Under the pieces are notes generated by a model. It did no database searches. It had not been told where the DNA came from and saw only the letters and a program-made list of their open reading frames with translations. Shown here in pieces: positions 1,549-50,834 of a stretch of DNA of 64,000 nt (its first letter is position 1; each line of letters opens with the position of its first letter). This DNA is from a virus (lineage: Duplodnaviria > Heunggongvirae > Uroviricota > Caudoviricetes), in the IMG/VR virus record IMGVR_UViG_3300032242_001414, positions 9,079-73,078 of that record; one strand, given 5' to 3'. Both the position numbers and the translations under genes were made by a program.

Positions 1549-1622
1549 GCCCAGGGATGAGATTCGAACTCATATCTTCTGATTAATCGTCAGGTGCTCT
1601 TTCACATTTGAGCTACCCTGGG
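1549..1622 (-). tRNA. tRNA-like gene (74 nt), anticodon assignment ambiguous
   Basis: Minus-strand sequence CCCAGGG-TA-GCTC-AAATGTGAAA-GAGC-A-CCTGA-CGATTAA-TCAGA-AGAT-ATGAG-TTCGAAT-CTCAT-CCCTGGG-C: 7-bp acceptor stem, D arm, T arm with canonical TTCGAAT loop, discriminator C, no encoded CCA. Anticodon loop CGAUUAA has G at position 33 and AUU at 34-36, which is non-canonical. Confidence 0.6.
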
Positions 1623-1631
1623 ACTACAAAA

Positions 1632-3149
1632 TTAATCAATTGTTACGATTCTTTTAGAAATTTCTTGCTTAATTTCATCTAAAGATTTCACAATTGTATA
1701 CATTTCTACAGCAGATAAAGCTGGTAAGTTGAAATCATACTTCTTAGCTTCAGCTGTGAATCCTTCTTTAGCTTTATCAGCTAAGTTTTCTAATTCACGT
1801 ACAGCATAAGACTCATCCAACTCTAATGTATCAAAATCAAGATCATGTAAGATTTCTGTTGCTTCCTCACGAGGAACAGTCATAATTGGTAAATATTCCC
1901 AACATCTGCCCTTAGATTCACCAATACCTACAACCTTCATAGGATTAATAAGTACAAGAACACTCGTATCACCACATCCTACATAGTGAATTTCATCACT
2001 AGTGAAGTGTAAACCTTCAGCACCACAATCATCAGTATTCCATCTACACTTAGCTGGGTCCATGCTTACAGCTCTACCAATACGAATATCAAATGTTCTA
2101 CTATAAGCATCTGTGAATCTATTCTCTGCTCTATTAGGCAAATCTAGATAAAGATCAGTTAAGTTACCAATCTCTTCACCATATTGCTCTTCACAATGTT
2201 TGTACACTGTACCTGAACCAGAACATTCTGAACAATCACAGCTATCGTCATAATAACAATCATTATCTTCATCATATTCATCAGCTTCACAAGGAACAGT
2301 TCCTGAACCATCACAATATGTACATGGCTCTAGTTCTTCAAATACAGATTTATGAACCATTGTATAATCACCATTCTTTAAGAATACTAAATAATCATCT
2401 GGTTTCTTCTTCCATACAGCCTTCACCTTATTATAAGCATTACTTACAAAGTGAACTAGTTCATTAGATCCATGGAGTGTAACCACATTACGCAATGCTA
2501 CAAAGAAGCCCTGCTTAGTGATACCAAATGCATTCTTCTTCAAGAAGTTGAATAACTTATCTGCTACCTCAGCTCTTGGATTCAAGCAACACCACATAAA
2601 GAATCTGTGTAAAGCCTGAAACTCATCACTATTTGTACCACCATGCTTACCAACCACTTCTAAGAATTCTTCTACAAGTAATGGAGGAAGAGTTCTATTG
2701 ATGCCCTTTAGATATAAAGAACCATCTTTCATCTCAAACTCTTCTAATGTAGCTAAATACTCAGCACCTCTTTGGATAGCCTTAGCTTTCTCATACTCAG
2801 CTTCAGCTTTTCTTCTTTCTGTTCTCACTTCTTCAGAACTAACTAATTCAATTAATTGACCTTCTGATTTAGCATCTTTGGCTGCATAATAATCATTTGT
2901 TGTTGCTGGAGATTTGGTAATAATATTACCATCATTCATTACAATAGTTAGTGTATCATTAACCATTTTAATGTTTAAATAGGGTTTGATACCACCATTT
3001 GTATATGTAGAATTCCATTGATAAGGAGAAGAAGGAGCTATTGCTCCCTCTTCATTATCTAATTGATCAAACGCTTGTTCAATCTTGTTTTCTACTACTC
3101 TTTCAATTGTGCGTTCAATAGCACTTTTAAACCATTTTAAGCTTAACAT
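1632..3149 (-). CDS. DnaJ-type (CxxCxGxG) zinc-finger containing protein, function unknown
   Basis: Track ORF 1632..3185 starts at TTG; the first ATG (MLSLKWFKSA) at 3149 removes the overlap with the upstream gene. The Cys-rich block CTYCDGSGTVPCEADEYDEDNDCYYDDSCDCSECSGSGTVYKHC contains two CxxCxGSGTV repeats, identical in pattern to the DnaJ cysteine-rich zinc-finger repeats. Confidence 0.55.
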   Translation of the reverse strand: MLSLKWFKSAIERTIERVVENKIEQAFDQLDNEEGAIAPSSPYQWNSTYTNGGIKPYLNIKMVNDTLTIVMNDGNIITKSPATTNDYYAAKDAKSEGQLIELVSSEEVRTERRKAEAEYEKAKAIQRGAEYLATLEEFEMKDGSLYLKGINRTLPPLLVEEFLEVVGKHGGTNSDEFQALHRFFMWCCLNPRAEVADKLFNFLKKNAFGITKQGFFVALRNVVTLHGSNELVHFVSNAYNKVKAVWKKKPDDYLVFLKNGDYTMVHKSVFEELEPCTYCDGSGTVPCEADEYDEDNDCYYDDSCDCSECSGSGTVYKHCEEQYGEEIGNLTDLYLDLPNRAENRFTDAYSRTFDIRIGRAVSMDPAKCRWNTDDCGAEGLHFTSDEIHYVGCGDTSVLVLINPMKVVGIGESKGRCWEYLPIMTVPREEATEILHDLDFDTLELDESYAVRELENLADKAKEGFTAEAKKYDFNLPALSAVEMYTIVKSLDEIKQEISKRIVTID

Positions 3150-3162
3150 GTTTTTGCTTTTT

Positions 3163-5520
3163 TTAAATTGTTTGTAATTCTTCAATTGTGTCTACAGTTA
3201 ATTCTTGCTCTAATGGAGCATCTTCAGTTAATTTTAGAGTGTAGTGCTCTAAGTTAACTCTTGTTTTGTGATACTTAAAGAGATCAACAAGTGCAGTCAT
3301 TAATGCTTTATCTTCATAACGAATTGCATATCCCATCTTACTTAACATTGCGTTCAAGAAAGGTAATTTGGTAAGCACCTCATTCACTTGCTTATAGATC
3401 ATATATGTTGGTTGATCAAACAAGTTGTTCTCTTTAGCATGTTCCACTATTATATTTTTGATCTCATCACTAGCATAGTTTCTGTTATTGTTTTTATGAT
3501 ATACTCTTAAAGTTTCTAACTTATCTGCTAGATCAGTAGATATCTCTTTAACAAATTCTATTCTATCAAATATAGCTCTATTATTTCTACATAGGTCTTC
3601 TACTAAGAATTCTGTAGCCATTGTTCTATATGGTCTGTTTTTTCCTTCCATAAATTTATCTAATGTTATCCAGTTATGTAATTCAGCTTTCTGTAAGTTA
3701 TCAAATGTGGCTTGTGCAACAATAACAAACTTTGCATGTTTGTCAAATTGAGACCACCATTTATCCATCTTCTTCTTATCAGCTTCTACAGCATAAACAT
3801 GTAACATATTTACTTTATGGATTTCTTCCATTTTAAATGTGGTAGGAACAAACTTAGCATATTGTTCAATTAATGTATTCTCTGTCTTGGTACCCACCTT
3901 ACCAGAGAATTCACCTTTCATTCTAACCTTCTTAACACCACCCACTGTTGTAGCTTTGGCTAAGATTTTAACTCTCTTAGCTTTCTGAGCAGCTGTCCAT
4001 TCTTCAGGAATAGCAATAGCATCAGCATCTATCATTCTTGCTTCATAAAGACTAATTACATGTCTTAATTCTGTAATGATTTGTCTCCATTGAGATTTAG
4101 GATAGTTCTCTAGTCTTAGCATAGACCAATATGTATGATAATCAACTTGATTACCACTTCTAAGCGTAAAAGGTTTGATATCTTTCTTAACAAATAGCAC
4201 TGTTTTGTAATCAGTTCCTAATATACTTCTTAAATAGTCTTGTTTACTTTTAGTAAGTCTATCTGCAAAATAATAGATATCACCATTGTGGCTACCACCA
4301 AAATCTTGTGGTCTTAAGTTAGTAGTCCAGTAGTTCTTGGCATTACCAAATCTACCATTGTTATATCTAAACTTAATTTGATACTCACCTAAGAAATAAT
4401 CCTTAGCTGTTTCAGCAAGTCTTTTGAAATCTAATAGCTCTACACCTTCTAGTTTAGGTTGTTTCATAGGAGTGGTAGCACGCTCAAGTAATTGTGTTAC
4501 ATCAATTCTACTTGGATATCCTATAATAGAACCATCCATATATTTATATCTATCATTATAGAATTCTAGAATGGATGTGATGTCAGACTTGTCTGTAATG
4601 CTTTCATTATATTTATCCATGAAAACATTTGCTACAGCAATAATTTTATCTATGATAGTTCTTTTAGCTTCTTGAGTATATCTAATAGCTTCTCTGTTAG
4701 GAGTTGGAAATAAACCATCACTCAAAGTAAATCTTAAAGCCATTTTCATATTGATTCTCTCAATACCAAGCTTCTCCCAGTCAATTGGATAGCTAACATT
4801 ATCTAGACATAAATGCATGTCATTATTCTGAGCTAAACTAGAATATTGATAATGCTCAGCTCTATGTATTGTGAAATTATTACTTACATCTCCCCAAGCA
4901 CTATCTACATCAAAATATACACTCTCAAAATAAGCTAATTGCTCCTTAATCTTCTTAGTGAAGTGATATTTATCGTAGTAATCCACTGGAACAATCACCT
5001 TTACACCATTTGGTTCTGTAGTTGGTGTTTCATATAAAAGATCGATACTGTTTGTATCCTCTCCTTCATACATCATATATTTACGTTCTACACCATTCTT
5101 TCTAGCTACGAAATAAAAGCTAGAGCTATAGGCTAATGGAGCTTTGAATCCTAAGCCCATCATACCTAATTCTGTGTTGCTATCACGCTTGGTTGATTTA
5201 CCATATTTACTGATGATATTAACTACATCATCTGCATCTAAACCAATACCAAAATCCTCAACAGCAAACTCAAATGTATCTGTCTTCACTGCTCTCTTAA
5301 ATGAAACAATGATAGGCTTGTCACTTCCAGCTCTTCTATGACTATCCAGTGCATTACTTGCACACTCACGGATAGTAGAGCCTATTGCATCAGAATATAA
5401 ATTCTTACTTAACATCTGCATCAGCACTTGTGCAGAATCTAAGTCTAGTGACATTTTCACAGTTTCCTGTGTTTCTCCCTCTTGGAGAATGTGTGATTCG
5501 GTTTGTTTTTCTAAGATCAT
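3163..5520 (-). CDS. Hsp90/HtpG-like GHKL (Bergerat-fold) ATPase, 785 aa
   Basis: N-terminal LYSDAIGSTIRECASNALDSHRR (cf. HtpG [22 protein letters not shown]), VEDFGIGLDADDV (cf. ISDNGVGMT), ISKYGKSTKR (cf. IAKSGTKSF), ELGMMGLGFKAPLAYSSSFYFVA (cf. LIGQFGVGFYSAFIVA); these are the N, G1 and G2 boxes in Hsp90 order. Confidence 0.65.
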   Translation of the reverse strand: MILEKQTESHILQEGETQETVKMSLDLDSAQVLMQMLSKNLYSDAIGSTIRECASNALDSHRRAGSDKPIIVSFKRAVKTDTFEFAVEDFGIGLDADDVVNIISKYGKSTKRDSNTELGMMGLGFKAPLAYSSSFYFVARKNGVERKYMMYEGEDTNSIDLLYETPTTEPNGVKVIVPVDYYDKYHFTKKIKEQLAYFESVYFDVDSAWGDVSNNFTIHRAEHYQYSSLAQNNDMHLCLDNVSYPIDWEKLGIERINMKMALRFTLSDGLFPTPNREAIRYTQEAKRTIIDKIIAVANVFMDKYNESITDKSDITSILEFYNDRYKYMDGSIIGYPSRIDVTQLLERATTPMKQPKLEGVELLDFKRLAETAKDYFLGEYQIKFRYNNGRFGNAKNYWTTNLRPQDFGGSHNGDIYYFADRLTKSKQDYLRSILGTDYKTVLFVKKDIKPFTLRSGNQVDYHTYWSMLRLENYPKSQWRQIITELRHVISLYEARMIDADAIAIPEEWTAAQKAKRVKILAKATTVGGVKKVRMKGEFSGKVGTKTENTLIEQYAKFVPTTFKMEEIHKVNMLHVYAVEADKKKMDKWWSQFDKHAKFVIVAQATFDNLQKAELHNWITLDKFMEGKNRPYRTMATEFLVEDLCRNNRAIFDRIEFVKEISTDLADKLETLRVYHKNNNRNYASDEIKNIIVEHAKENNLFDQPTYMIYKQVNEVLTKLPFLNAMLSKMGYAIRYEDKALMTALVDLFKYHKTRVNLEHYTLKLTEDAPLEQELTVDTIEELQTI

Positions 5521-9514: not shown

Positions 9515-10186
9515 TTATTTATAATACTCATCTATTGTATCTACAACTAATTGTAGATTATTAGGGATTTTGATGTCTGCAAACATTCCATCTGGACTTT
9601 TTGCTGGATACTTTTTATATCTATTTGTTACAAAGCTATAGTTAGCTGTACCATCTTTAGTCTCATCAACATTAGTGTACAAACACACAGTTAATAAACC
9701 TTCTAGTACAATTTGATTGTCAATCATCTTACCTGCTGTCTTAATCTTATATCCTATAATCTCACCACCATCCTCAATAGTTTCAGGATGTGTAAAATAG
9801 AACACTTTAATATCATCACGTAATTTTCTTGCTTCTCTAAATAAATCCACCATATCTCTAGCCATCAATGTGAACTTGGTAAAACCAACTTCTGCAGCTT
9901 TAGCCATTATATTGAATCCCATTATGTAGTTAGAATCCTCAATGATAATGTTCTTAATGTGAGTTGCTTTTTCAGAAATGTTTTTTAACAATCTAGTGAT
10001 TTCAATCGCATCATCTACTTCCTTGTAATTCTTGTTTTCAGAATTGTACAATTTCTCTGCTCCTTTGAAAGGTAATTCCTTCTTAGCAACATTGATAATG
10101 TAGGTTTCTTTAGGATCTAAATATTTGATTGCTGTGGACTTTCCTGTACCAGTGGGACCCACAATCCCAATTAGCTTACTTGCCAT
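9515..10186 (-). CDS. Sak4-like RecA-superfamily ATPase (recombination/annealing helper)
   Basis: Walker A GPTGTGKST at the N-terminus; ~220 aa single-domain ATPase, the size and architecture of phage Sak4 proteins. Confidence 0.5.
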   Translation of the reverse strand: MASKLIGIVGPTGTGKSTAIKYLDPKETYIINVAKKELPFKGAEKLYNSENKNYKEVDDAIEITRLLKNISEKATHIKNIIIEDSNYIMGFNIMAKAAEVGFTKFTLMARDMVDLFREARKLRDDIKVFYFTHPETIEDGGEIIGYKIKTAGKMIDNQIVLEGLLTVCLYTNVDETKDGTANYSFVTNRYKKYPAKSPDGMFADIKIPNNLQLVVDTIDEYYK

Positions 10187-14979: not shown

Positions 14980-15234
14980 TTAATTGTTTTTAATTCGTAA
15001 TCCAAATTCTAAATCAAACCAATTGAATGTATCCTCAGCTCTTTCTTTTCTGCATTTAAACACCTTCTTTAATAAAGGCAATGCATAAGCTTTGAACTGA
15101 TCATGTTGTTCTTGTGTCATGGTCCATTTATTGTACCATTCTTTTGTCATATAGGCTTCTTGCATAGATTTACCAACCATTTCTAGTTGGTAGTCTAACA
15201 AGTGATCAGCTATTGTCTCGCGATTTACCTTCAT
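14980..15234 (-). CDS. hypothetical protein (84 aa)
   Basis: ORF track; ATG start. Confidence 0.45.
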   Translation of the reverse strand: MKVNRETIADHLLDYQLEMVGKSMQEAYMTKEWYNKWTMTQEQHDQFKAYALPLLKKVFKCRKERAEDTFNWFDLEFGLRIKNN

Positions 15235-15835
15235 AAAATATTAAGTTTGTTTTATTGTTTCTGATACCATAAAGTTGTTTAGCAAAATGGTTATATTTTA
15301 AATTATTAGCATCTGCAGCTTCTTTTATACCATCATAAACTACACCAGTGGATATATCTATTACTTTCCTTTTCTTTAATGAAGGTTTACCTAATTTAGC
15401 TTTACTTAGTTTATCTTTATGTTCTTCAGATAATAATTTACCTGTATTCCAAGGTTTAGTTCCTTTAGGAGGGCCAAAAGAAGTTCTTCTTAATCCTGTA
15501 TTAATAGCATGTCTAACATTTTCAGATTGAGTACACCATTCCAGATTCTCAATTCTATTATCTGTTTTTATACCATTAATATGATTAACTACTGGTTTAT
15601 TATCAGGATTTGGTATGAATGACTCTGCAATTAATCTATGAACAAGATGTCTTTTGTTTGTATCACTCATTCTAAGTTCTAATGACATATAACCATTTTT
15701 CATTAAAGCTATCTTTAATAATTTACCTGGCTTTTGTCCACTCATTCTATTAGAATGTTGTGACTTAACATTACCTAAGTTACTAATTTGATACAATCCT
15801 TCATATTCAGGTATATCTTTCCAAATTTCTGTCAT
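15206..15835 (-). CDS. HNH homing endonuclease with NUMOD motifs
   Basis: Track ORF starts at TTG (15880); ATG at 15835 gives MTEIWKDIPEYEGLYQISNLGNVKS (NUMOD4 motif), then VHRLIAESFIPNPDNKPVVNHINGIKTDNRIENLEWCTQSEN (HNH_3) and a KPWNTGK...LSKAKLGK NUMOD3-like repeat. Confidence 0.8.
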   Translation of the reverse strand: MTEIWKDIPEYEGLYQISNLGNVKSQHSNRMSGQKPGKLLKIALMKNGYMSLELRMSDTNKRHLVHRLIAESFIPNPDNKPVVNHINGIKTDNRIENLEWCTQSENVRHAINTGLRRTSFGPPKGTKPWNTGKLLSEEHKDKLSKAKLGKPSLKKRKVIDISTGVVYDGIKEAADANNLKYNHFAKQLYGIRNNKTNLIFYEGKSRDNS

Positions 15836-15889
15836 TATATTATTTTTGGCAAAGGTAAACAGAATAATTGATACTACCAAATATTTTCT

Positions 15890-16372: not shown

Positions 16373-16549
16373 TTAGATTCTTTTTATTATATAGTCATTA
16401 AACTTATCAAGATCAAAACTACTGTTAATAGATTCAAAGAACTTCTTATAAGCCCAATAGTAATCTGATGCTGTTGGATATCTATGTCCATTAGCTATGC
16501 AATCATCTACTACTAAATCTGCAGCTATTTTAAAATGTGATTTACCCAT
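16373..16549 (-). CDS. small hypothetical protein (58 aa), not in ORF track
   Basis: Hand translation MGKSHFKIAADLVVDDCIANGHRYPTASDYYWAYKKFFESINSSFDLDKFNDYIIKRI; its start codon is embedded in the conserved 21-nt leader motif. Confidence 0.4.
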   Translation of the reverse strand: MGKSHFKIAADLVVDDCIANGHRYPTASDYYWAYKKFFESINSSFDLDKFNDYIIKRI

Positions 16550-16567
16550 AGGTTATTTGTTTTGGTT
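16547..16567 (-). promoter_or_regulatory. conserved 21-nt leader ACCAAAACAAATAACCTATG(G) spanning a start codon (site 1)
   Basis: Plus-strand CATAGGTTATTTGTTTTGGTT is identical at 16547, 16902 and 17143, and 19/21 at 20156. Confidence 0.6.
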
Positions 16568-16644
16568 ATAAAAAACACCCAAGATTTTACTCATAAGAAG
16601 GGCAAAGTCCTTTTTGTCTTATCCTATTACCACTAGGTTGGGTG
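16568..16644 (-). terminator. structured rho-independent terminator (minus strand)
   Basis: On the minus strand CACCCAA...TTGGGTG (plus 16638-16644 / 16576-16582) encloses a nested ATAAGA/TCTTAT and AAGG/CCTT hairpin and is followed by UUUUUU (plus A-run 16570-16575); lies downstream of gene 16653..16904. Confidence 0.45.
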
Positions 16645-16652
16645 CTCAAATA

Positions 16653-16904
16653 TTAATTTCTTATTTCGTTAGTATCTATTTGATATGAAGTTGTACTATT
16701 ATAGTTATTCTTATAATACTCTTCTCTACTATAATGTGGTAAAATAGGATGGTTTATGGGTGTTTCTTGACCATCTGAAAAAGCTTTTTGTATCTGCTCT
16801 TTTTCTTTAAATGTTAGTTCTTTCAGTTTTAATAATAATTCTTTGTTGAATACTATTGGATTCATTTCAATATATTCAATTAATTCTTGCATTGCTGTTT
16901 TCAT
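16653..16904 (-). CDS. hypothetical protein (83 aa), MKTAMQE-paralog A
   Basis: Shares the N-terminus MKTAMQE with 17149..17382; start codon sits in the conserved 21-nt leader. Confidence 0.5.
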   Translation of the reverse strand: MKTAMQELIEYIEMNPIVFNKELLLKLKELTFKEKEQIQKAFSDGQETPINHPILPHYSREEYYKNNYNSTTSYQIDTNEIRN

Positions 16905-16922
16905 AGGTTATTTGTTTTGGTT
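16902..16922 (-). promoter_or_regulatory. conserved 21-nt leader (site 2)
   Basis: Identical to site 1; contains the ATG of gene 16653..16904. Confidence 0.6.
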
Positions 16923-16959
16923 AATTTGTGTCTAATTTTGGAATTTGTGGTATCATAAT

Positions 16960-17145
16960 TTAATTTTGAGATGCTTGTTTACACTCATCTGATTGCTGAA
17001 ATGTATTAGGTCTTTTGTCATAGTCACTTGAACCACAAGCATACTTAGTTCTTGGTGTCAGAGCATCTACTTCAATAGAACCACATTTAGGACAATATTC
17101 TTTTGTAGAATTAGATGTCATTAATGGTCTTTCTTCTTGTTTCAT
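16960..17145 (-). CDS. small zinc-ribbon-like protein (61 aa)
   Basis: CPKCGS...YACGSS Cys pairs; start codon in the conserved 21-nt leader. Confidence 0.45.
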   Translation of the reverse strand: MKQEERPLMTSNSTKEYCPKCGSIEVDALTPRTKYACGSSDYDKRPNTFQQSDECKQASQN

Positions 17146-17163
17146 AGGTTATTTGTTTTGGTT
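17143..17163 (-). promoter_or_regulatory. conserved 21-nt leader (site 3)
   Basis: Identical to site 1; contains the ATG of gene 16960..17145. Confidence 0.6.
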
Positions 17164-17382
17164 ATAGGTTTGGTTGTAGTATCTATCTCCGCTAAACATA
17201 GTTTTATTTATTTCTAATGCTTCATCTAAATCACACGCTTTGTAACCTCTATCATAAGCATTTACTATTTGCTCTTTTTCTTTTTCAAGATATATATTAA
17301 ATCCTTTATCAAAGATTTCGTTAGCCATATAAGGATAATTAGCTTTTAATTCATCAAACCATTCTTGCATTGCTGTTTTCAT
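17149..17382 (-). CDS. hypothetical protein (77 aa), MKTAMQE-paralog B
   Basis: N-terminus MKTAMQEWFDELK; immediately downstream of the DNA polymerase gene. Confidence 0.5.
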   Translation of the reverse strand: MKTAMQEWFDELKANYPYMANEIFDKGFNIYLEKEKEQIVNAYDRGYKACDLDEALEINKTMFSGDRYYNQTYNQNK

Positions 17383-19334
17383 TAGAATAAACTTAATTGG
17401 TTCTTGTCAATATTGACTTTTCTTCTTTTACCTTCTAATTGTATCTTATGTACAATACGCTCAGCACGCTCTATATAATATGCGTGATTAATATTATCAA
17501 GAGAATAATCTGGTGATAGATGATTACATACAGTCATCAACCAATCACCTGCTTCCACTTGTGATACATCTGCAGCATTGGATGTACATTCAGGATTCTT
17601 AACCTTTAATAGTTTCTCTCCTGTATTAGATACATAATATCTAATTAGCTTGTTATATATTGTTTTCTCACTAGCTGAGTGACCTTCATAATGAAAGTCT
17701 TTACTAGATTTCTGACGTAAACAAAAGTCATATATATTCTTCCAATTACGAATAGTATCAGCAACAGGGATATTGCTAGTATAGTATAACTCGAGGGCAA
17801 TTGGAACAATCCTTGCACTTTTGTTCTTATGTAGCTCAAAGTCCGTGAGAAAGTCACCTTTCTTTTTAATTTCTCCATCTGTTTTGATTGCTAAATAGTC
17901 ATTAACTGTGCTGAATATAATCTTCTGGTAGTCTGTACGCTCTAGCTCATAACTAGTTAGCTCCATCCACCATTTGTTTATCTCATGCATCTTATCTATC
18001 TTATCTTTTGTTACCATAATGGTAACACCATCAGTATTAGCTGATATTATATTTATATCATTCAACTCATACTGCTCGATAAGCATAAGTAAACTCAATT
18101 CACCTGTAATAGTGGTAAACATAGTCAGTTGTCTATCATATATCCAGTTTTGCATATCACTAGACTTACCATAAACACTATTAACAGCAAGCTTAAGAGC
18201 ACCCACAATACCTTTGATTTTCTTATCTTTCTTAGCCAAAGGTTTAAGTTCGAGTCTCTTTTCAAACATCTGTTTATAGCCTCTGAGAAATTCAGGACCA
18301 AGGTGAGCAGGATAGCGAGCGTTGTTGATAATAATGGCAGGATAATAAGAAGACACATCCCAATCCACAATAAATGTTTCATCATCAGCTTCAAATATTT
18401 TAGGTTTATTCTCTGTATGCAGACCACCCTTGGCAAATGTATATGTATTACCATAGAATTCTAATGACTCTTTAAAATCATCAGTGAGTGTGAATATCTG
18501 CTTCTTGACATGCTTTAAGAACTGTTGAAGCTCTGGTGTCTGGAATGCTATATAATCAGCAATACAGTTCTTTGCTTTAACTTCCTTACGGAAATATCCT
18601 TTCTTTGGTAGTTCAGTGTAATGTATACCCTTCTCTTGGCAATAATACTTTTTAATCATCTCATCACCAATCTTACTGTCAGAATAGTTAAGACAAGGAA
18701 TACCAAACTCATCAAATATATCTTGTCTGAGTTCTATTTGGTTATTACCCTTGTACAATGGATGTTCAGTGTTACCTGTTGTCACCTTATAGAATTCATA
18801 GGTAGCCATTACATCATTATGACAATAATCCTTAGTTAGTTGAATCTCATCATCAGTCATATCAGTTTTACTGTGGTGGATAGGCATCTCTTCAATGTTC
18901 TCCAGATCCATCTCAAACTCTAATCGTTTTAATGATACACGTCTATTCTTATTATCATAGTGATTAACTCTGAATAAATCAATTTGCTTATTGTGTAACC
19001 ATTCCTCTTTATATTCAGGGAATACATCATAATTAGCATCATGTATTACATCTGCAGCCTTCTGAGCTATTATAGCTGTAACTTCAAGAGCACTTAATTC
19101 ATGCCATTGCTGATGATTTCTAATGATCCATTCAACCACCTGACTATCGAATCTAAGGTTATTATAGCCCACCCAATAGTATTCATCATATTGTTCAGTA
19201 AATCTAACAAATGCATCTAATTGATTAGTGTTTTTACTCACCTCGAAATCATGCATTGCACCAGTTCCAGGATTATATATGCTAACAAGAAACAGCTCCT
19301 GCATTGTTTCTATATCATAGATGAGTACGTTCAT
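17382..19334 (-). CDS. family B DNA polymerase (compact, 650 aa)
   Basis: Exo I LIYDIET, Exo II YNNLRFD, Exo III YCHNDV; polymerase motif A DVSSYYPAII (DxxSLYPS), motif B KLAVNSVYGK (KxxxNSxYG), motif C ISANTDGVTI (YxDTDS-like). Confidence 0.8.
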   Translation of the reverse strand: MNVLIYDIETMQELFLVSIYNPGTGAMHDFEVSKNTNQLDAFVRFTEQYDEYYWVGYNNLRFDSQVVEWIIRNHQQWHELSALEVTAIIAQKAADVIHDANYDVFPEYKEEWLHNKQIDLFRVNHYDNKNRRVSLKRLEFEMDLENIEEMPIHHSKTDMTDDEIQLTKDYCHNDVMATYEFYKVTTGNTEHPLYKGNNQIELRQDIFDEFGIPCLNYSDSKIGDEMIKKYYCQEKGIHYTELPKKGYFRKEVKAKNCIADYIAFQTPELQQFLKHVKKQIFTLTDDFKESLEFYGNTYTFAKGGLHTENKPKIFEADDETFIVDWDVSSYYPAIIINNARYPAHLGPEFLRGYKQMFEKRLELKPLAKKDKKIKGIVGALKLAVNSVYGKSSDMQNWIYDRQLTMFTTITGELSLLMLIEQYELNDINIISANTDGVTIMVTKDKIDKMHEINKWWMELTSYELERTDYQKIIFSTVNDYLAIKTDGEIKKKGDFLTDFELHKNKSARIVPIALELYYTSNIPVADTIRNWKNIYDFCLRQKSSKDFHYEGHSASEKTIYNKLIRYYVSNTGEKLLKVKNPECTSNAADVSQVEAGDWLMTVCNHLSPDYSLDNINHAYYIERAERIVHKIQLEGKRRKVNIDKNQLSLF

Positions 19335-19336
19335 AA

Positions 19337-19591
19337 CTATTCAGTTTCATTATTTAATACATCTTCAAACTTAGCTGCAGCTGCACTATCTTGTTCTTTT
19401 AATAGATCTAATGCAATATCATATCTATTTGCAATAGTTTGAGCATTAAATAACTCTAGTTGTAAACTGTCTATAGTGTTATTCAAACCATTTGATTTGT
19501 ATAAATTGATTTGTTTGTGCTGGTCATATATTATATAGAATAACACAAGCACAGAACTCAATGTAAGAATTGCGTTTATATACTTTTTCAT
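19337..19591 (-). CDS. small membrane protein (84 aa from internal ATG)
   Basis: Track ORF 19337..19681 overlaps the upstream gene in another frame; the ATG at 19591 (MKKYINAILTLSSVLVLFYIIY) abuts the upstream stop and gives one predicted TM helix. Confidence 0.4.
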   Translation of the reverse strand: MKKYINAILTLSSVLVLFYIIYDQHKQINLYKSNGLNNTIDSLQLELFNAQTIANRYDIALDLLKEQDSAAAAKFEDVLNNETE

Positions 19592-19592
19592 A

Positions 19593-19793
19593 TTATTTAT
19601 TTTTATGTCTATCATATCTCTTACCAAGATATGTAGTGTATCTATCATTCTTTTTAAATCTAGCTTTGCCCTTTTCTCCAAGCTGTATTATTTTAGTTTC
19701 CATATCAACATCGAATAGCTCATCATACGACAAGCTATCTCGATGCTTTTTGATACTAACCAAAATATCAGCTTCTGTTATATATGTTTCCAT
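19593..19793 (-). CDS. hypothetical protein (66 aa)
   Basis: ORF track. Confidence 0.4.
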   Translation of the reverse strand: METYITEADILVSIKKHRDSLSYDELFDVDMETKIIQLGEKGKARFKKNDRYTTYLGKRYDRHKNK

Positions 19794-20008
19794 TATATAT
19801 GTATTGTTTTAGCTATAGTTTTCCAATGATTTGGATCAGTCCAAAGATATCCTCTTGTATATTCTTGTTCTTCAATATACAATTGTAACCATATAATATG
19901 ATCAGTCATAGTAATCTTACTAAGAACCTGTGTTGGTAACCAAGCAAATCTAGTTTTAAATCTAACATCACCTAAACTAGGTTTATTATTTTTTATTTCC
20001 CATTTCAT
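19793..20008 (-). CDS. hypothetical protein (71 aa)
   Basis: ORF track. Confidence 0.4.
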   Translation of the reverse strand: MKWEIKNNKPSLGDVRFKTRFAWLPTQVLSKITMTDHIIWLQLYIEEQEYTRGYLWTDPNHWKTIAKTIHI

Positions 20009-20026
20009 AATGTGTAATTTAATGCA

Positions 20027-20158
20027 TTATTTTATTTTATATTGGTTAACCCAAATAGGTATTGAATAAAAAAACCATATTTTTCTTCTAACTGTATAAC
20101 CATTTTCATCTTCCCCACAATAAATTTCAAAGTTGTTTAATCCTTTTTTATATTTCAT
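20027..20158 (-). CDS. small hypothetical protein (43 aa), not in ORF track
   Basis: Hand translation MKYKKGLNNFEIYCGEDENGYTVRRKIWFFYSIPIWVNQYKIK; start codon in the conserved 21-nt leader. Confidence 0.3.
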   Translation of the reverse strand: MKYKKGLNNFEIYCGEDENGYTVRRKIWFFYSIPIWVNQYKIK

Positions 20159-20176
20159 AGGTTATTTGTTTTGGTA
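20156..20176 (-). promoter_or_regulatory. conserved 21-nt leader (site 4)
   Basis: CATAGGTTATTTGTTTTGGTAC; contains the ATG of small gene 20027..20158. Confidence 0.55.
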
Positions 20177-20184
20177 CAAAATTA

Positions 20185-20204
20185 CTTGAATACATATATG
20201 TATT
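20185..20204. repeat. perfect 20-bp palindrome TGAATACATATATGTATTCA
   Basis: Self-complementary by direct reading; lies between the stop of the GIY-YIG/HTH gene and the leader of the next small gene. Confidence 0.8.
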
Positions 20205-20213
20205 CATAAGTAT

Positions 20214-20792
20214 TTATACTGAGTTTTTTAATGTGGGAACTAATTTATATCCCAATATGTCTAATAGCTTTACAATAGTGTTATAAGAAGGATTACCCTT
20301 GTCTAATTCAATATCATTTAAAGTTCTTTGAGTTATTCCAGCTAATTCTGCTAAATCTCCTTGCTTTAAATTAAGAGATTTTCTTCTATTTCTAATGAGT
20401 CCACGTACAGTTGACACTTCAATAAGTGTATCATTTGTTCTTTTAAGTGCTTTTTCAAGATTGTATTGAGCAATATCAATAGCTTCTGTCAACTCTGCAA
20501 TATAATCACTTTTATAAATAAGTACATTTAAGAGCTGACAGCCTGCTTCTTCATAAAACTTTATCCAGAATTTCTCTCTTTCTATTAAACTATCTTGTGT
20601 AGGACATTCTTGAATAACATCTACCAAAGGACATAATCCTTGGTCTCTTAAATCTGAGACCCAATTATTTACTGATTCACTATGTGAGTATATTAGATGA
20701 GATTTAGCTCTTTTTATACCTGAGCTACTCTTTCCTATATACATATAGTTGTCTGTTTTTGGACATCTAAGTCCATATATTATGTATTGCAT
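20214..20792 (-). CDS. I-TevI-like GIY-YIG homing endonuclease fused to a C-terminal XRE-type HTH domain
   Basis: Track start is TTG; ATG at 20792 gives MQYIIYGLRCPKTDNYMYIGKSSSGIKRAKSH (GIY-YIG), and the C-terminus LKQGDLAELAGITQRTLNDIELDKGNPSYNTIVKLLDILGYKL is a Cro/C1-type HTH. Confidence 0.7.
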   Translation of the reverse strand: MQYIIYGLRCPKTDNYMYIGKSSSGIKRAKSHLIYSHSESVNNWVSDLRDQGLCPLVDVIQECPTQDSLIEREKFWIKFYEEAGCQLLNVLIYKSDYIAELTEAIDIAQYNLEKALKRTNDTLIEVSTVRGLIRNRRKSLNLKQGDLAELAGITQRTLNDIELDKGNPSYNTIVKLLDILGYKLVPTLKNSV

Positions 20793-20836
20793 ACACAAAT
20801 ATATGAAATATATTTCACATTGCCAAATCTAAACAG

Positions 20837-24001: not shown

Positions 24002-24421
24002 TTACAAGCTTACTGAGATTAAATTCTTAATCTTATCTTCTGTAAGAGCTTCTACTTTGTACTCTTCAACAGCGATGTTATCAACTGAGTAGCTGATTAA
24101 GCCTGTGTTAGCATTTGGCATATTGATTTGGTTGTACAATTCGCCTGCTGAACTAACTTGTTCTTTAATTTCGAACCCTAATAATTGGTTCAATGTAATC
24201 TCTTTGCTTCTGAAGCTATCACTAACAGCTTGTGAACAAATCACTTGCTCTTGTGTACCGTCAGCTTTCTTAAGGATTACCACTAATCTTCTGTCTGTAG
24301 CAATTAAGTTAGAAGGAATGAAGTCAACACTTCCACCCTTACCTACTACTGATGCAACTGTACCTAATGATGTTGCATTAACTGTTGTTTGTGCTTCACG
24401 CACTTTGAAATTTAAAGCCAT
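24002..24421 (-). CDS. hypothetical protein (139 aa), apparently monocistronic
   Basis: ORF track; flanked upstream by the control region and downstream by a strong terminator; near-identical 19-nt palindromic sites lie on both sides. Confidence 0.55.
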   Translation of the reverse strand: MALNFKVREAQTTVNATSLGTVASVVGKGGSVDFIPSNLIATDRRLVVILKKADGTQEQVICSQAVSDSFRSKEITLNQLLGFEIKEQVSSAGELYNQINMPNANTGLISYSVDNIAVEEYKVEALTEDKIKNLISVSL

Positions 24422-25270
24422 TTTGTTTTGGTTTTATTTGTTATGAAAAATATTTAATATGTTGAAAGGGTTATGACAGGATAATCAGAGGGTTATGACA
24501 GGGTGCTAGTTGATTTTACTTTTACCCACTCCCTAGTCAAAATTAGTTCTTCTGACACAAGCACTAGGGGGCTAGCTCCAACCTCCCAACTTGCACAGGG
24601 GGTTCTGATATGGAGAGGACTACCCTCCCATCAATATAAAGGGTTTGTAAAATTGGAAAAAAAATTTTGTAAAATGTTCCACATGGAACTATAGTCATAA
24701 GCCTCTGATATACAACAGCTTAAGACATCCCTGTGTTAAATGTCCCAAAGCCCCATGTTAAATGTTTGCATGAATTTTTCCAAAGTTTCATGCAGGGGAT
24801 TGTCCAGTTAATTAACTAAAAAACTGGACATTTGGCAAGCTATAACCTAGCTATATCCTGCCAAAAGTCAAGTTCACCCTTTACTATTTACCTCCTATGG
24901 TAAAGCTATTGCCTGACTTATCATACATTATTATATCATTTTACATATAATGTATGATATAGTTTACATATTATATGCTTTAGAATATAATGTGTCTTAT
25001 AAGGGACACATCAAGCTATAGGTTGTCCTTTATAAGGGACATTATAATATGCTGTTGTACCAAGATTATAATATCCTGCTAGAAAAATAAATTTGGTAGT
25101 GTGAAATATATTACAGATTTTTGGGGGGGAATACAAGGGGGGGCTTGGAATAAGATATTCTACTATAGCTAATTGGGAAAAATAAAGCATAATATAGCAA
25201 TAAGTTTATGAATAACTAAAATAGTTATTTGACAATCAATAGAATATACATACCTTTGTGTTAATTATAT
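24422..25270. promoter_or_regulatory. divergent intergenic control region between the minus-strand early module and plus-strand late module
   Basis: ~850 bp without a convincing ORF. Contains direct repeats GGGTTATGACAGG x2 (24468-24480, 24490-24502), TGTTAAATGT x2, TTATAAGGGACA x2 (24997-25008, 25030-25041), AT-rich ACATATAATGT/ACATATTATATG repeats, a GC-rich island (24520-24640) and two G7 tracts (25123-25129, 25137-25143). Confidence 0.6.
24669..24688. promoter_or_regulatory. candidate operator copy 2: AAAATGTTCCACATGGAAC
   Basis: Differs by one base (G to A) from the 23884..23903 site; inverted arms GTTCCA/TGGAAC. Confidence 0.45.
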
Positions 25271-49970: not shown

Positions 49971-50834
49971 ATGGCAAAAACAATAATCATAAAATTAATA
50001 AAGGCTGGAAGCAGAACAGGACCATTTGACATCATTGATCAATATGGAGAAACATTAGTTACAGGAGTAACTAAGCAACAGCTTATTGATGGATATGCAT
50101 TAAATGTAGATAATAGTTCTACCATGGTTATATTACAATCCACTGGTAGATGTCATACATTAGTAGAATTACACATTACTCAGGCTACAGAAGCAGAGAT
50201 AGCTGCCATAATTTATACACCTTATAATACAGGTAGTATATGGACACATTTGAAAGACATAACTGTTTATAATAAGTATTACGATAATATAGAACCATTT
50301 ATACTAGAATACCCATTTGCTTACCTATCTTATGATGAAATCCTTCAGAATGTTAAGGATTATACAAGAGCAATCAAGTATCTACCTAGTACCACTGGAT
50401 CATATAATGATAATGCAGCTATAGAAGTGAATGGTTATTTTAATAAAGCTATTTTATATAATGGTCAACAATGTTCAGGATTATTGTTGTTAGTTCCAAA
50501 ACCTTTACGTAACTTGCAACAATATTTGACCTATCCTATATATAATGCAGATAGTAAGACTATCACTTATGCTAAGTCTGATGGCTTCTATCAATACAAC
50601 ACTTTCTGGGGATTAGTTAAAGATAAAACTGTACCTTTGTTTAATACTACTTGTGAGTCATTATCCATAGATAAAGTTCTAAATCAAGCTAATATGGATT
50701 ATGGAAAAAGATCATATAAGAAAGAACCTCTAAGAGCTAAATTCTTAAAGGTTAGACACATACTGGATGACAAATCTGATTTACATTTAGTTAGTGGATT
50801 TATTGTTACACCTGCTGAAATATCTTACAAGTAA
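49971..50834 (+). CDS. tail fiber-like protein (287 aa), N-terminal domain paralogous to 40732..41379
   Basis: AGSRTGPFDIIDQYGETLVTGVTKQQLIDGYALNV...ILQSTGRCHTLVELHIT aligns with the 40732 product N-terminus. Confidence 0.5.
   Translation: MAKTIIIKLIKAGSRTGPFDIIDQYGETLVTGVTKQQLIDGYALNVDNSSTMVILQSTGRCHTLVELHITQATEAEIAAIIYTPYNTGSIWTHLKDITVYNKYYDNIEPFILEYPFAYLSYDEILQNVKDYTRAIKYLPSTTGSYNDNAAIEVNGYFNKAILYNGQQCSGLLLLVPKPLRNLQQYLTYPIYNADSKTITYAKSDGFYQYNTFWGLVKDKTVPLFNTTCESLSIDKVLNQANMDYGKRSYKKEPLRAKFLKVRHILDDKSDLHLVSGFIVTPAEISYK

Follow-up and report, generated by a model that had tools for sequence, protein, structure and literature searches.

A 21-nt element, consisting of a G-free 18-nt leader and an ATG, begins four small genes in the window (the whole 64-kb stretch of DNA analyzed). 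It recurs at gene junctions in other phages, where small-gene cassettes have been gained, lost or exchanged at its edges. The window is from a crAss-like phage, whose host belongs to Bacteroidota and has no Shine-Dalgarno (SD) sites. With moderate confidence, the element is explained as a stop-restart leader that is portable, lacks structure and works independently of SD sequences, and that is also a crossover point for shuffling small early genes. The analysis shows the anatomy and distribution of the element, upstream stops used in every frame, and breaks in homology at its borders. We infer that translational coupling and initiation are its selected function and that exchange proceeds by homologous or micro-homology recombination.

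Copies of the element and their surroundings

Three exact minus-strand copies of AACCAAAACAAATAACCT-ATG (plus-strand string CATAGGTTATTTGTTTTGGTT) were found. A fourth copy had a single mismatch, with TACC... for AACC... on the coding strand. The first-pass annotation had correctly reported the three exact copies, the small-gene ATG inside each copy, and a degenerate relative ahead of gene 24002–24421, but it had counted two changes in the fourth copy. The copies and the features around them are listed below.

16547–16567, minus strand: copy 1, exact; leads the 58-aa gene; preceded by T (T/AA) and a hairpin with a U-run
16902–16922, minus strand: copy 2, exact; leader and ATG of the 83-aa gene
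17143–17163, minus strand: copy 3, exact; closes the 77-aa gene (last four codons NQNK and the stop) and, after CCT, supplies the ATG that opens the 61-aa gene
20156–20176, minus strand: copy 4, TACC... variant; leader and ATG of the 43-aa gene
24419–24442, minus strand: degenerate permuted relative aacaaataaAACCAAAACAAA-ATG; leads the 139-aa gene 24002–24421
16373–16549, minus strand: 58-aa gene; orthologues in relatives show five different upstream junctions
16653–16904, minus strand: 83-aa gene; MKTAMQE...KEKEQI family, without the NQNK tail
16960–17145, minus strand: 61-aa gene; CxxC...C zinc-ribbon-like pattern
20027–20158, minus strand: 43-aa gene; homologues in L108, L109, L110 and L095
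17149–17382, minus strand: 77-aa gene; mosaic MKTAMQE...EKEKEQI...YYNQTYNQNK family
16921–16956, minus strand: 11-aa mini-ORF ending on T/AA that overlaps the 5' edge of copy 2
16573–16647, minus strand: long-range stem GAGCACCCAA/UUGGGUGUUU, then UUUUUU, directly upstream of copy 1
20177–20184, minus strand: TAATTTTG, matching the Bacteroidetes -7 box TAnnTTTG; abuts copy 4
20188–20205, minus strand: GAATACATATATGTATTC, an 18-nt perfect palindrome lying between the -7 box and the homing-endonuclease gene; conserved in L108
20214–20798, minus strand: free-standing homing endonuclease (GIY-YIG + HTH_3), directly upstream of copy 4
15206–15880, minus strand: NUMOD4 + HNH_3 homing endonuclease on the opposite side of the small-gene block

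All four copies lay within 24 kb of early-type genes. No further copies with up to 3 mismatches were found on either strand of the whole 64 kb, and a second weak relative with 4 mismatches preceded gene 9515–10186. The 21-mer had 0 matches among 100 dinucleotide-preserving shuffles of the window, and the chance expectation was none, which bore out the earlier claim of conservation far beyond chance. Similarity among the four copies ended at the element borders: in the 15 nt before and the 12 nt after the element, the copies differed from one another. The linker is best written T-AACCAAAACAAATAACCT-ATG-A.

Three of the four small ORFs had homologues in related contigs and are therefore real genes; no homologue of the 61-aa zinc-ribbon-like ORF was found among the fetched loci. 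The exact leader was present at all four homologues of the 43-aa gene. The start of the 77-aa gene overlaps the DNA polymerase stop (TAATG), and its 3' block TACTACAACCAAACCTAT (17164–17181) prolongs the linker, as happens at about one third of copies elsewhere. In an AF2 prediction, the YYNQTY motif of this family lay in a helix, and NQNK formed an unstructured tail. The stem at 16573–16647 looks like a terminator, with a folding energy that was not significant (z = -0.3). The palindrome may be an operator or terminator stem.

The exact 21-mer occurred in at least 119 IMG/VR contigs of uncultured phages. The carriers comprised at least two unrelated lineages, crAss-like phages and phages of about 34 kb, and one carrier lineage was not crAss-like, with a different terminase and replication module. 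Among 185,579 bacterial genomes, only seven stretches held the 21-mer, all of them on short metagenome-assembled genome (MAG) contigs, and three of the five MAGs concerned were Bacteroidota bins. The 21-mer was absent from 50,697 GenBank phage records and was not found in the searchable literature.

Stop-start junctions and translation context

An ORF of at least 30 aa began at 89% of about 150 non-redundant copies. An upstream ORF stopped inside the element in 91% of 145 non-redundant copies, and 9% were truly intergenic. The upstream stop was the internal TAA in 70% of the 145, T/AA in 16%, and the TGA of ATGA in 5%, so that all three reading frames were used. T at -1 and A after the ATG were each present in 84%. 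The 117 junctions represented 103 distinct family pairs drawn from 108 families. In the window, three of the four copies had no upstream ORF of at least 30 aa ending in the element. Stop codons in all three frames lay within 19 nt of the AUG; termination would therefore take place near the start, and reinitiation is possible. By a rough estimate, three-frame stops occur by chance in about 10% of AT-rich 25-mers, which counts against the stop-restart reading.

No SD sequences were found upstream of the window genes. The element has AAAA at -14 to -11, as reported for initiation regions of F. johnsoniae (PMC6847099). The predicted folding energy was about 0 around two copies, and no competing AUG, GUG or UUG was found in the element. 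At independent-anchor loci, the commonest 12-mers before start codons contained AAACAAATAA or AACAAATAA, followed by 1–4 nt and ATG. A at -3 and -6 is a positive determinant in F. johnsoniae (PMC6847099). With C at -3 and U at -6, the element departs from the textbook optimum for an initiation region. G-free leaders preceded 22 of 70 genes of this phage. Lack of structure is insufficient to account for 18 nt staying exact.

The first-pass annotation had proposed a shared promoter or leader, or a regulator site. A shared leader at the start codons of small genes of the replication (early-type) module held, and the promoter did not: no Bacteroidetes -33/-7 boxes were found inside the element, and upstream ORFs stop inside 91% of copies. 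The element is probably not a promoter. It may possibly be a site for a translational regulator. Where a canonical TAnnTTTG -7 box was present (window copy 4; L007, L065 and L078), it lay 0–10 nt upstream of the element. With the reported spacing of 4–5 nt from -7 box to transcript start (PMC6847099), transcripts would start at or just before the element, which would make the element a 5' UTR. The box abutting copy 4, kept in L108 as TAACTTTG, predicts by this spacing a start 4–5 nt into the copy.

Cassette exchange at the element

The 21-mer was the sole shared sequence in 93% of copy pairs. In copy pairs with one homologous flank, similarity stopped 0–3 nt from the element edge. The flanks of the four copies being unrelated, no longer duplicated segment contains the element; it is not a simple gene duplication, and the objection from duplication that accompanied the earlier claim fails.

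Joints were compared among close relatives, with DNA polymerases about 75–86% identical at the nucleotide or protein level. Identity between the window and L108 stepped from 73% to 94% at 20175, and identity between the window and L020 from 73% to 90% at 16573. Three different arrangements lay downstream of the same homing endonuclease in the window, in L108 and in L185, each joined inside leader-like sequence. Copy 4 was a hybrid joint of two leader-like sequences that remain separate in L108. At the 58-aa gene, the element was present in the window, L020 and L059, and the gene directly adjoined DNA polymerase in L029. Close relatives of the window thus differ through cassette gain or loss at the element. 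The leader stayed identical at 18 of 18 positions despite downstream coding sequences that were 73–88% identical and unrelated upstream sequences. The diverse junction combinations were drawn from metagenome assemblies, so some may be chimeras; the window alone has four contexts.

Alternative explanations, known systems and proposed role

The element could instead be bound by a sequence-specific trans-acting factor that co-regulates a set of small early genes, for example a translational repressor or activator acting on RNA, a small RNA or a DNA-binding protein; this is considered unlikely. The exact identity across 18 nt exceeds the requirement of the ribosome, and the element is asymmetric, always on the coding strand beside start codons, phage-specific, and essentially missing from bacterial genomes. 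Read from the sequence, TAACC recurs in it as a direct repeat (TAACC...TAACC) at a distance of 13 nt. A gene beside copy 4 encodes an HTH protein, and trans-acting control, which is established for stoperators, is also the proposal made for the start-associated sequences of mycobacteriophages. However, the element occurs in at least two unrelated lineages, and in flanks of up to about 14 kb per locus no larger candidate factor gene common to both was found; small-gene cassettes, among them the MKTAMQE family and the 43-aa gene, were the exception. The MKTAMQE family had no fold match, the GIY-YIG/HTH gene was in only three other loci, degenerate versions of the element with variable spacing to the ATG were common, and the window had no antisense copy at up to 3 mismatches. 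A functionless remnant is quite unlikely. Here the 3' end of the abundant MKTAMQE...YYNQTYNQNK family, a 4-nt spacer and ATG would have been scattered by tandem duplication, decay and recombination and homogenized by frequent gene conversion between co-infecting phages. This family is the commonest neighbor (80 flanking ORFs), all four window copies adjoin a member or a site where a relative has one, and about one third of upstream tails are ...YYNQTYNQNK. Its blocks 5' ATGAAAACAGCAATGCAAGAA and EKEKEQI are also nucleotide-invariant, with shuffled variable segments between, and NQTY/NQNK resembles a partial internal duplication (as read from the sequence). Yet only 12 of 129 family members sampled via the N-terminus had the exact leader, and more than 100 other families flank the element on either side. 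Among the three window copies without an upstream ORF of at least 30 aa (copy 2 has the 11-aa mini-ORF), two are exact and the third is one base off. The sharp borders lie at the 21-mer and not at the family tail, and the 43-aa and 58-aa genes retained the exact leader while their coding sequences diverged.

It is very unlikely that the element is a promoter of the crAss-type virion RNA polymerase, or of the host enzyme carrying an alternative sigma factor, with transcripts that begin at or beside the ATG and thus give leaderless or near-leaderless early mRNAs. Phage RNA polymerase promoters are exact repeats of about 20 nt, early promoters of crAss-like phages are not known, and terminator-like features precede two window copies; the absence of a common upstream motif from phi14:2 early transcripts (10.1101/2020.03.07.982082) also counts for a promoter. 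Against it stand the tight stop-start junctions of apparently co-transcribed ORFs at 91% of copies, the occurrence of the element in the lineage that is not crAss-like and differs in terminase and replication module, and the presence of only four copies in 24 kb of early-type genes. The element itself lacks -33/-7 elements, and the TAnnTTTG boxes just upstream in several cases place the transcription start at its 5' edge. A target of a homing endonuclease or site-specific recombinase, with the small genes as integron-like cargo, is highly improbable. GIY-YIG and HNH homing endonucleases lie on both sides of the region, the copies are direct repeats bracketing cassettes, and the GIY-YIG gene is a recent arrival, with 93% nucleotide identity to L185 against only 75% for the adjoining DNA polymerase. 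However, an endonuclease cutting the element would cleave its own genome four times, and the endonuclease families are missing from most element-carrying loci. No dyad symmetry or attC-like structure was found in the element, and no integrase or resolvase among the window proteins scanned. In relatives, the joints vary in register, as in crossovers at micro-homology, and do not resemble precise site-specific exchange.

Stoperators are repeats of Cluster A mycobacteriophages and sites of the L5 gp71 repressor, which binds about 24–30 copies across the whole genome. Like the element, they are asymmetric repeats at or near stop and start codons in short intergenic spaces, oriented with transcription. 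The element, in contrast, has few copies confined to the early-type module, crosses phage families, and has no known cognate binding protein. In the Susskind-Botstein modular theory, linker sequences lie at the module junctions of lambdoid phages, where boundary sequences were reportedly described by Clark and colleagues in 2001. These are likewise short conserved gene-border sequences proposed to guide homologous module exchange, but they are weakly conserved, debated and lineage-specific, whereas the element is an exact 21-mer with a stop/start coding role.

The start-associated sequence (SAS) of Cluster K mycobacteriophages, contrasted with stoperators in its description, is 13 bp (GGGATAGGAGCCC) with an SD core (Pope et al. 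2011, PMC3203893). Both SAS and the element are short, asymmetric repeats that hardly vary and lie a few nt ahead of ATG start codons, in a single orientation, at non-structural genes of many families, sometimes with the upstream stop codon inside. Both are nearly absent from host genomes and suspected of a role in translation initiation, the function of both being unproven. The element differs in having 18 nt plus ATG, no G and no SD, in lacking accompanying ESAS-like inverted repeats, and in supplying stops systematically in three frames. SAS is limited to one phage cluster, whereas the element is common to unrelated lineages and coincides with mosaic breakpoints, which were not reported for SAS (PMC3203893). 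The T4-type promoter-early stem-loop (PeSL; Arbiol et al. 2010, PMC2839356) is also a conserved regulatory motif, with copies that separate small, non-essential ORFan genes in plastic parts of the genome, where homing endonucleases are common and recombination between copies inserts, deletes or replaces intervening genes. PeSL consists of a sigma70-type promoter and a terminator hairpin and is therefore a transcriptional unit; the element has neither, being unstructured and inside junctions that are putatively coupled in translation. The SD-less initiation regions of Bacteroidetes (Baez et al. 2019, PMC6847099) share with it A-richness, lack of structure, AAAA at -14 to -11, no extra AUG near the start, and a TAnnTTTG -7 box followed by a short leader. 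These host regions are degenerate and favor A at -3 and -6, whereas the element, an exact sequence, carries C and U, respectively, at these two positions and was not found in host genomes.

As a stop-restart leader and crossover point, the element would provide on the mRNA a G-free, unstructured, SD-independent initiation region for any ORF placed after it. A ribosome ending any upstream ORF would stop beside the start codon and could reinitiate. Just after a -7 promoter box, the element would become the short 5' UTR of the transcript. Identical copies lie at many junctions in phages sharing hosts, so it would also offer micro-homology for insertion, deletion and exchange of small early-gene cassettes within and between phage lineages. 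The homing endonucleases adjoining it in the window probably stimulate such events. Since ordinary initiation regions are degenerate, a further cause, either a trans-acting factor or continual gene conversion, may be required to keep it exact. The other conserved blocks of the YYNQTY family, into whose 3' block about one third of copies run on, show no nucleotide variation and contain rare codons, so hitch-hiking with this family could explain part of the conservation. The element sits exactly where small genes are swapped in and out, and therefore resembles a natural adapter through which accessory genes are shuffled and expressed.

The 21-nt element and its setting in the phage genome

The 21-nt element at the starts of four small genes, an 18-nt leader followed by ATG, is a previously undescribed and widely shared sequence that marks cassette boundaries. 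Its plus-strand form, CATAGGTTATTTGTTTTGGTT, was found exactly at 16547–16567 (copy 1), 16902–16922 (copy 2) and 17143–17163 (copy 3), and with a single mismatch at 20156–20176 (copy 4). The first-pass annotation had placed the three exact copies correctly and had counted two changes in the fourth, which was one too many. The coding-strand (minus) form is AACCAAAACAAATAACCT-ATG, in which the ATG starts ORFs of 58, 83, 61 and 43 aa, as had been described. No match was obtained at 3 or fewer mismatches in 100 dinucleotide-preserving shuffles, consistent with the earlier statement that the conservation is beyond chance. A window scan at 6 mismatches recovered only two weak relatives preceding genes, those at 24002–24421 and 9515–10186; the former was the degenerate relative already reported. 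Neither the 15 nt on the 5′ side of the element nor the 12 nt on its 3′ side were related among the four copies. The conserved unit is therefore sharply bounded, and the longer duplicated segment that the first-pass annotation had named as a refutation of its reading was not present.

The window is part of a crAss-like phage. The features around the element were as follows.

About 24.5 kb down to 1, minus strand: replication module (DNA polymerase, helicases, RIIA/RIIB, thioredoxin, UDG)
15206–15880, minus strand: NUMOD4+HNH_3 free-standing homing endonuclease
16573–16647, minus strand: hairpin upstream of copy 1, a 10-bp long-range stem enclosing about 55 nt and then UUUUUU, between the 83-aa gene and copy 1
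17382–19334, minus strand: DNA polymerase, an intact 650-aa gene
20188–20205, minus strand: perfect 18-nt palindrome GAATACATATATGTATTC, with the homing-endonuclease stop on one side and the −7 box of copy 4 on the other
20214–20798, minus strand: GIY-YIG+HTH_3 free-standing homing endonuclease, immediately upstream of copy 4
From 27 kb, plus strand: terminase, portal and major capsid genes
44997–49955: Crassvirus muzzle protein (PF25731)

All copies in the window lay on the minus strand, which is the coding strand, in the replication (early-type) module, all within a 3.7-kb span of it; the structural module (25–64 kb of the window) contained no copy. The two homing endonuclease genes bracketed the element region. 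No Shine-Dalgarno (SD) sequences were found upstream of the window genes, where the DNA was A-rich, and the −7 promoter element of Bacteroidetes, TAnnTTTG, occurred several times. Both features fit a Bacteroidota host. A scan for sigma70-type promoters gave fewer matches than shuffles and is the wrong model for Bacteroidota. Transcription in F. johnsoniae starts 4–5 nt past the −7 box (PMC6847099). At the GIY-YIG+HTH_3 gene the −7 box TATATTTG (upstream to 20812) ended 3 nt before the ATG, so that with this spacing a leaderless mRNA is predicted. The phage also encoded an AAA_24 (Sak4-type) protein.

The four copies were preceded by different sequences. Copy 3 formed the end of the 77-aa gene (NQNK*), and in copy 2 the stop T|AA terminated an 11-aa mini-ORF. 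This mini-ORF (16921–16956, minus strand; 11 codons, MIPQIPKLDTN*) spanned the gap from the 61-aa gene to copy 2 and could be a deleted-cassette remnant or a genuine coupling ORF. Copy 1 was preceded by the hairpin with its U-run, and copy 4 by a −7 box. The folding energy of the hairpin was no better than that of shuffles, and a different hairpin with a T-run occupied the equivalent place in the related viral locus L020; the hairpin may be a terminator. The palindrome GAATACATATATGTATTC was kept with one change in another related locus, L108, and could serve the HTH domain as an operator or form the stem of a terminator.

Several other observations were made in the phage genome. The only RNA family matched by Rfam in the window was a tRNA at 1549–1622 (minus strand, 51 bits), called by ARAGORN as tRNA-Asn with anticodon ATT; in its anticodon loop, CGATTAA, the anticodon is preceded by G instead of U and the wobble base is A. 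The region 1632–5520 (minus strand) encoded a RIIA-like protein of 785 aa and a RIIB-like protein of 517 aa. A 1479-aa protein with an N-terminal His_Phos_1 (histidine-phosphatase) domain (50834–55273, plus strand) adjoined the muzzle protein. No DFDxD RNA-polymerase motif was found among the large ORFs of the window, which is part of the genome. In the related loci L085 (reverse complement, 2384–5418) and L059 (74–2479), the DNA polymerase was split in two ORFs by an inserted ORF of 275 or 219 aa; this looks like a homing endonuclease or intron insertion, absent from the window.

Junction anatomy, the MKTAMQE family and distribution

The anatomy of the element was investigated on about 150 non-redundant copies among the IMG/VR matches listed. 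An ORF of at least 30 aa followed the element in 89% of these copies (median 70 aa), and an upstream ORF of at least 30 aa stopped within it in 91%; only 9% were truly intergenic. The upstream stop was the internal TAA in 70%, giving the C-terminus ...NQNK on many unrelated proteins, a TAA formed by the preceding T and the first two As of the element in 16%, and the TGA of ATGA in 5%. The base at −1 was T in 84% and the base after ATG was A in 84%. The stop usage and these two flanking bases indicate that the functional unit is T-AACCAAAACAAATAACCT-ATG-A. This unit has stops in three frames within 19 nt of the restart codon, and all three are used in nature. A copy with a displaced ATG, AACCAAAACAAATAACCTAcaaaaccATG, was observed in the related locus L185 (780–850), which shows that the leader can decay through small insertions.

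The commonest neighbour of the element was the MKTAMQE family of helical proteins of about 75 aa, which carries no Pfam domain or annotation and comprises at least 330 clusters at 90% identity. The window members were the 77-aa (17149–17382) and 83-aa (16653–16904) genes, both on the minus strand. Three blocks, MKTAMQE, EKEKEQI and YYNQTYNQNK, were conserved, with shuffled, unrelated segments between them; the family has a mosaic conserved-variable-conserved architecture whose segments are freely recombined. The blocks were nucleotide-invariant and used codons that are rare in the phage (TAC 20%, AAC 33%, ACC 7%). In about one-third of the copies listed, the element extended upstream into TACTACAACCAAACCTAT, which encodes YYNQTY. 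An AF2 model of a family protein (pLDDT 86) placed YYNQTY in the last helix and NQNK in an unstructured tail. A PDB fold search with this confident helical model gave no match and therefore no functional clue. When the family was sampled by its N-terminus, independently of the element, the exact leader was present in 12 of 129 members and a leader with 4 or fewer mismatches in about one-quarter; the remainder had unrelated leaders. The element may have originated as the 3′ end of this family, and it is not tied to it.

An exact-match scan of IMG/VR found the element on at least 119 contigs, with 158 copies among the matches listed; these contigs came from many different samples and ranged from 4 to 287 kb. 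The DNA polymerase of the window was matched in 11 loci among the matches listed, at about 67–86% protein identity (closest 80–86%). Most other listed loci represented one or more further lineages that were not crAss-like, with contigs about 34 kb long that carried a phrog_2-type terminase, a primase/helicase, a RecE-like exonuclease and a DnaB-like helicase. A shared "HNH" protein in 35 loci was rejected as a single-linkage artefact, since what the loci had in common was just an N-terminal domain (about 110 aa), on the opposite strand. An exact scan of 185,579 bacterial and archaeal genomes (one per species) found 7 stretches, all on short MAG contigs, in bins including Sediminibacterium, uncultured Bacteroidetes and Draconibacterium. 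These look like binned phage fragments, and a host-derived ribosome-binding sequence, as an exact sequence, was thereby rejected. Among 50,697 GenBank phage records, no DNA was similar to 16–21 kb of the window, a 69-nt junction query had no match covering the 21-mer, and the 77-aa protein was unmatched; the element was not found in this collection. No paper with the element string was found in the searchable literature.

Portability and recombination joints

The 117 two-ORF junctions among the copies listed represented 103 different family pairs from 108 families, and 21 families were found on either side of the element. Among 11,935 copy pairs, 93% had nothing in common beyond the 21-mer; where one flank was homologous (83 pairs), similarity ended 0–3 nt from the element edge. 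The diversity of pairs and the sharp ends of similarity ruled out simple duplication and showed that the element is a discrete, transferable unit. The unrelated flanks in the window were consistent with this, and the paralogous MKTAMQE genes (77 and 83 aa) did not have a common leader. The other recurrent junctions, ATTCTAATG and GACTATAAACTATAAACT-ATG, were also considered as portable linkers and were rejected, since they proved to be either 9-mers shared by chance or context conserved between orthologues.

Insertions, deletions and replacements between relatives ended at the element, and the copies flanked small ORFan genes. Identity between the window and L108 was 73% at the nucleotide level through the GIY-YIG gene and changed to 94% exactly at the element (20175). 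Compared with L020, the DNA polymerase was 73% identical and the sequence from 16573 onwards 90% identical, and L020 was without the three cassettes present in the window at 17398–16573. After the same −7 box, L108 had ...TAC|AAACAAAACAATATTTT-ATG, an MKTAMQE-family gene, a 3-mismatch copy, a small ORF, an exact copy and the 43-aa gene; at the same place the window had ...TAC|CAAAACAAATAACCT-ATG directly preceding the 43-aa gene. This comparison indicates that two leader-like sequences crossed over and left copy 4 as a hybrid, which accounts for the one mismatch in it. These breakpoints are direct evidence of crossovers at the element.

The same genes were found with different junctions. The 58-aa gene was preceded by the element in the window, L020 and L059, by an overlap with the DNA polymerase stop (TAATG) in L029, and by other junctions in L085 and L185. 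The 43-aa gene had the exact leader in L108, L109, L110 and L095, with proteins 77–95% identical, and at least L109 clustered with loci outside the crAss lineage. The leader was identical at 18 of 18 positions where the coding sequence was 73–88% identical and the upstream sequence was unrelated. The GIY-YIG+HTH_3 gene was 93% identical to its L185 counterpart at the nucleotide level, while the adjacent DNA polymerase was 75% identical, which suggests that the endonuclease gene recently homed. In L185 this ORF was fused to TTAAAAACAAATAACCTATGA and stopped at a TGA overlapping the next ATG.

Proposed mode of action and comparison with known systems

Translation initiation in F. johnsoniae involves an unstructured region, As at −14 to −11, −6 and −3, and no nearby AUGs (PMC6847099). 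The element has AAAA exactly at −14 to −11, its leader contains no G and hence no alternative start codon, and the predicted folding energy around copies 2 and 3 was 0 to −0.4 kcal/mol. These features and the three-frame stops fit an SD-independent stop-restart (translational coupling) adapter, which would double as a short 5′ UTR. A TAnnTTTG box lay 0–10 nt upstream of the element in a handful of copies, including copy 4 and those in L007, L065 and L078, for which the predicted transcript start is at or just before the 5′ edge of the element. In independently fetched loci, the commonest pre-start 12-mers contained AAACAAATAA or AACAAATAA, followed by 1–4 nt and ATG. For recombination, the AAA_24 protein and the two homing endonucleases could provide annealing and double-strand breaks. 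Overall, the chances of the proposed stop-restart linker mechanism are put at about even.

A pure initiation-region account is weakened by C at −3 and U at −6, which are off the F. johnsoniae optimum, by the frequency of G-free leaders (22 of 70 genes in this phage), and by the exactness over 18 nt, which ordinary regions do not have. A putative binding site for a trans-acting factor would explain the exactness. Apart from the small-gene cassettes (MKTAMQE family, 43-aa gene), the flanks available, up to about 14 kb long, yielded no larger gene in common as a candidate for such a factor. Hitch-hiking with the MKTAMQE family accounts for some of the pattern but not for the sharp borders or the copies without an upstream ORF of at least 30 aa ending inside. 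In 70% of junctions the two ORFs were in frame with TAA-CCT as the sole separation; more speculatively, regulated UAA read-through could fuse neighbouring small proteins.

A promoter within the 21-mer is unlikely. No sigma70 hexamers or Bacteroidetes −33/−7 boxes were found in it, its coding strand has no TTTG, and the TAnnTTTG boxes lie outside, upstream; a polymerase-specific promoter is also at odds with the presence of the element in a non-crAss-like lineage. The first-pass annotation had proposed a shared promoter or 5′ UTR; with the stop of an upstream ORF contained in 91% of copies elsewhere, the element is better described as a leader than as a promoter. It is also unlikely to be the target of a homing or site-specific enzyme, since this would entail self-cleavage, the element lacks symmetry and the register of the joints varies. 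A bolder and rather improbable reading is that the 22-mer is the recognition site of a dedicated trans-acting machinery common to phage families, either an annealase/recombinase on DNA or an RNA-binding regulator on the leader. Promoterless small-ORF cassettes would then be taken up, cut out and swapped among unrelated Bacteroidota phages at a single universal stop-restart adapter, as in an integron-like system.

The closest analogue of the element is the start-associated sequence (SAS) of Cluster K mycobacteriophages, which has the consensus 5′-GGGATAGGAGCCC with an AGGAG Shine-Dalgarno core and is confined to Cluster K (PMC3203893). Both are asymmetric conserved repeats a few nt upstream of starts, mostly ATG (4 of 4 in the window, 89% of the copies listed). 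Both have one orientation and occur only at non-structural genes, for the element as seen in the window; both are associated with many gene families (108 flanking the element) and are absent from hosts (7 stretches in 185,579 genomes for the element). The element differs in that its sequence is unrelated, G-free and without an SD core, and comes from Bacteroidota-type phages; its cross-lineage spread is new. The element works like SAS and is an analogue, not a member.

PeSLs of T4-type phages are promoter-terminator units (PMC2839356). The element resembles them in a cassette-shuffling role at small ORFan genes, but has no sigma70-like early promoter inside the motif and no stem-loop terminator (0 to −0.4 kcal/mol, copies 2 and 3). 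Stoperators are bound by the cognate phage repressor and occur in many copies genome-wide, unlike the 4 copies within 3.7 kb of the early-type module. A Shine-Dalgarno site (GGAGG-like, 5–10 nt upstream) differs from the G-free leader. In integron attC sites, imperfect inverted repeats form a recombinogenic hairpin, and there is a cognate tyrosine recombinase; the element has no dyad symmetry or structure, and the window proteins scanned included no integrase. It also differs from the Bacteroidetes sigmaA promoter, whose −7 box TAnnTTTG is not inside it. In phi14:2, a model crAss-like phage, early transcripts had no common upstream motif (10.1101/2020.03.07.982082).

The element provides a sequence handle on internal-cistron translation in Bacteroidota, whose ribosomes ignore Shine-Dalgarno sites. 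If it works as proposed, it would be a ready-made 21-nt part for polycistronic constructs in Bacteroidota. As a search key for metagenomes, it could retrieve small mobile phage genes in the hundreds. The exactness of 18 non-coding letters across more than 100 gene contexts may point to an unknown factor. The element is also a sequence handle on the free exchange of small accessory genes of the host-takeover or anti-defence type, even between unrelated phage families.
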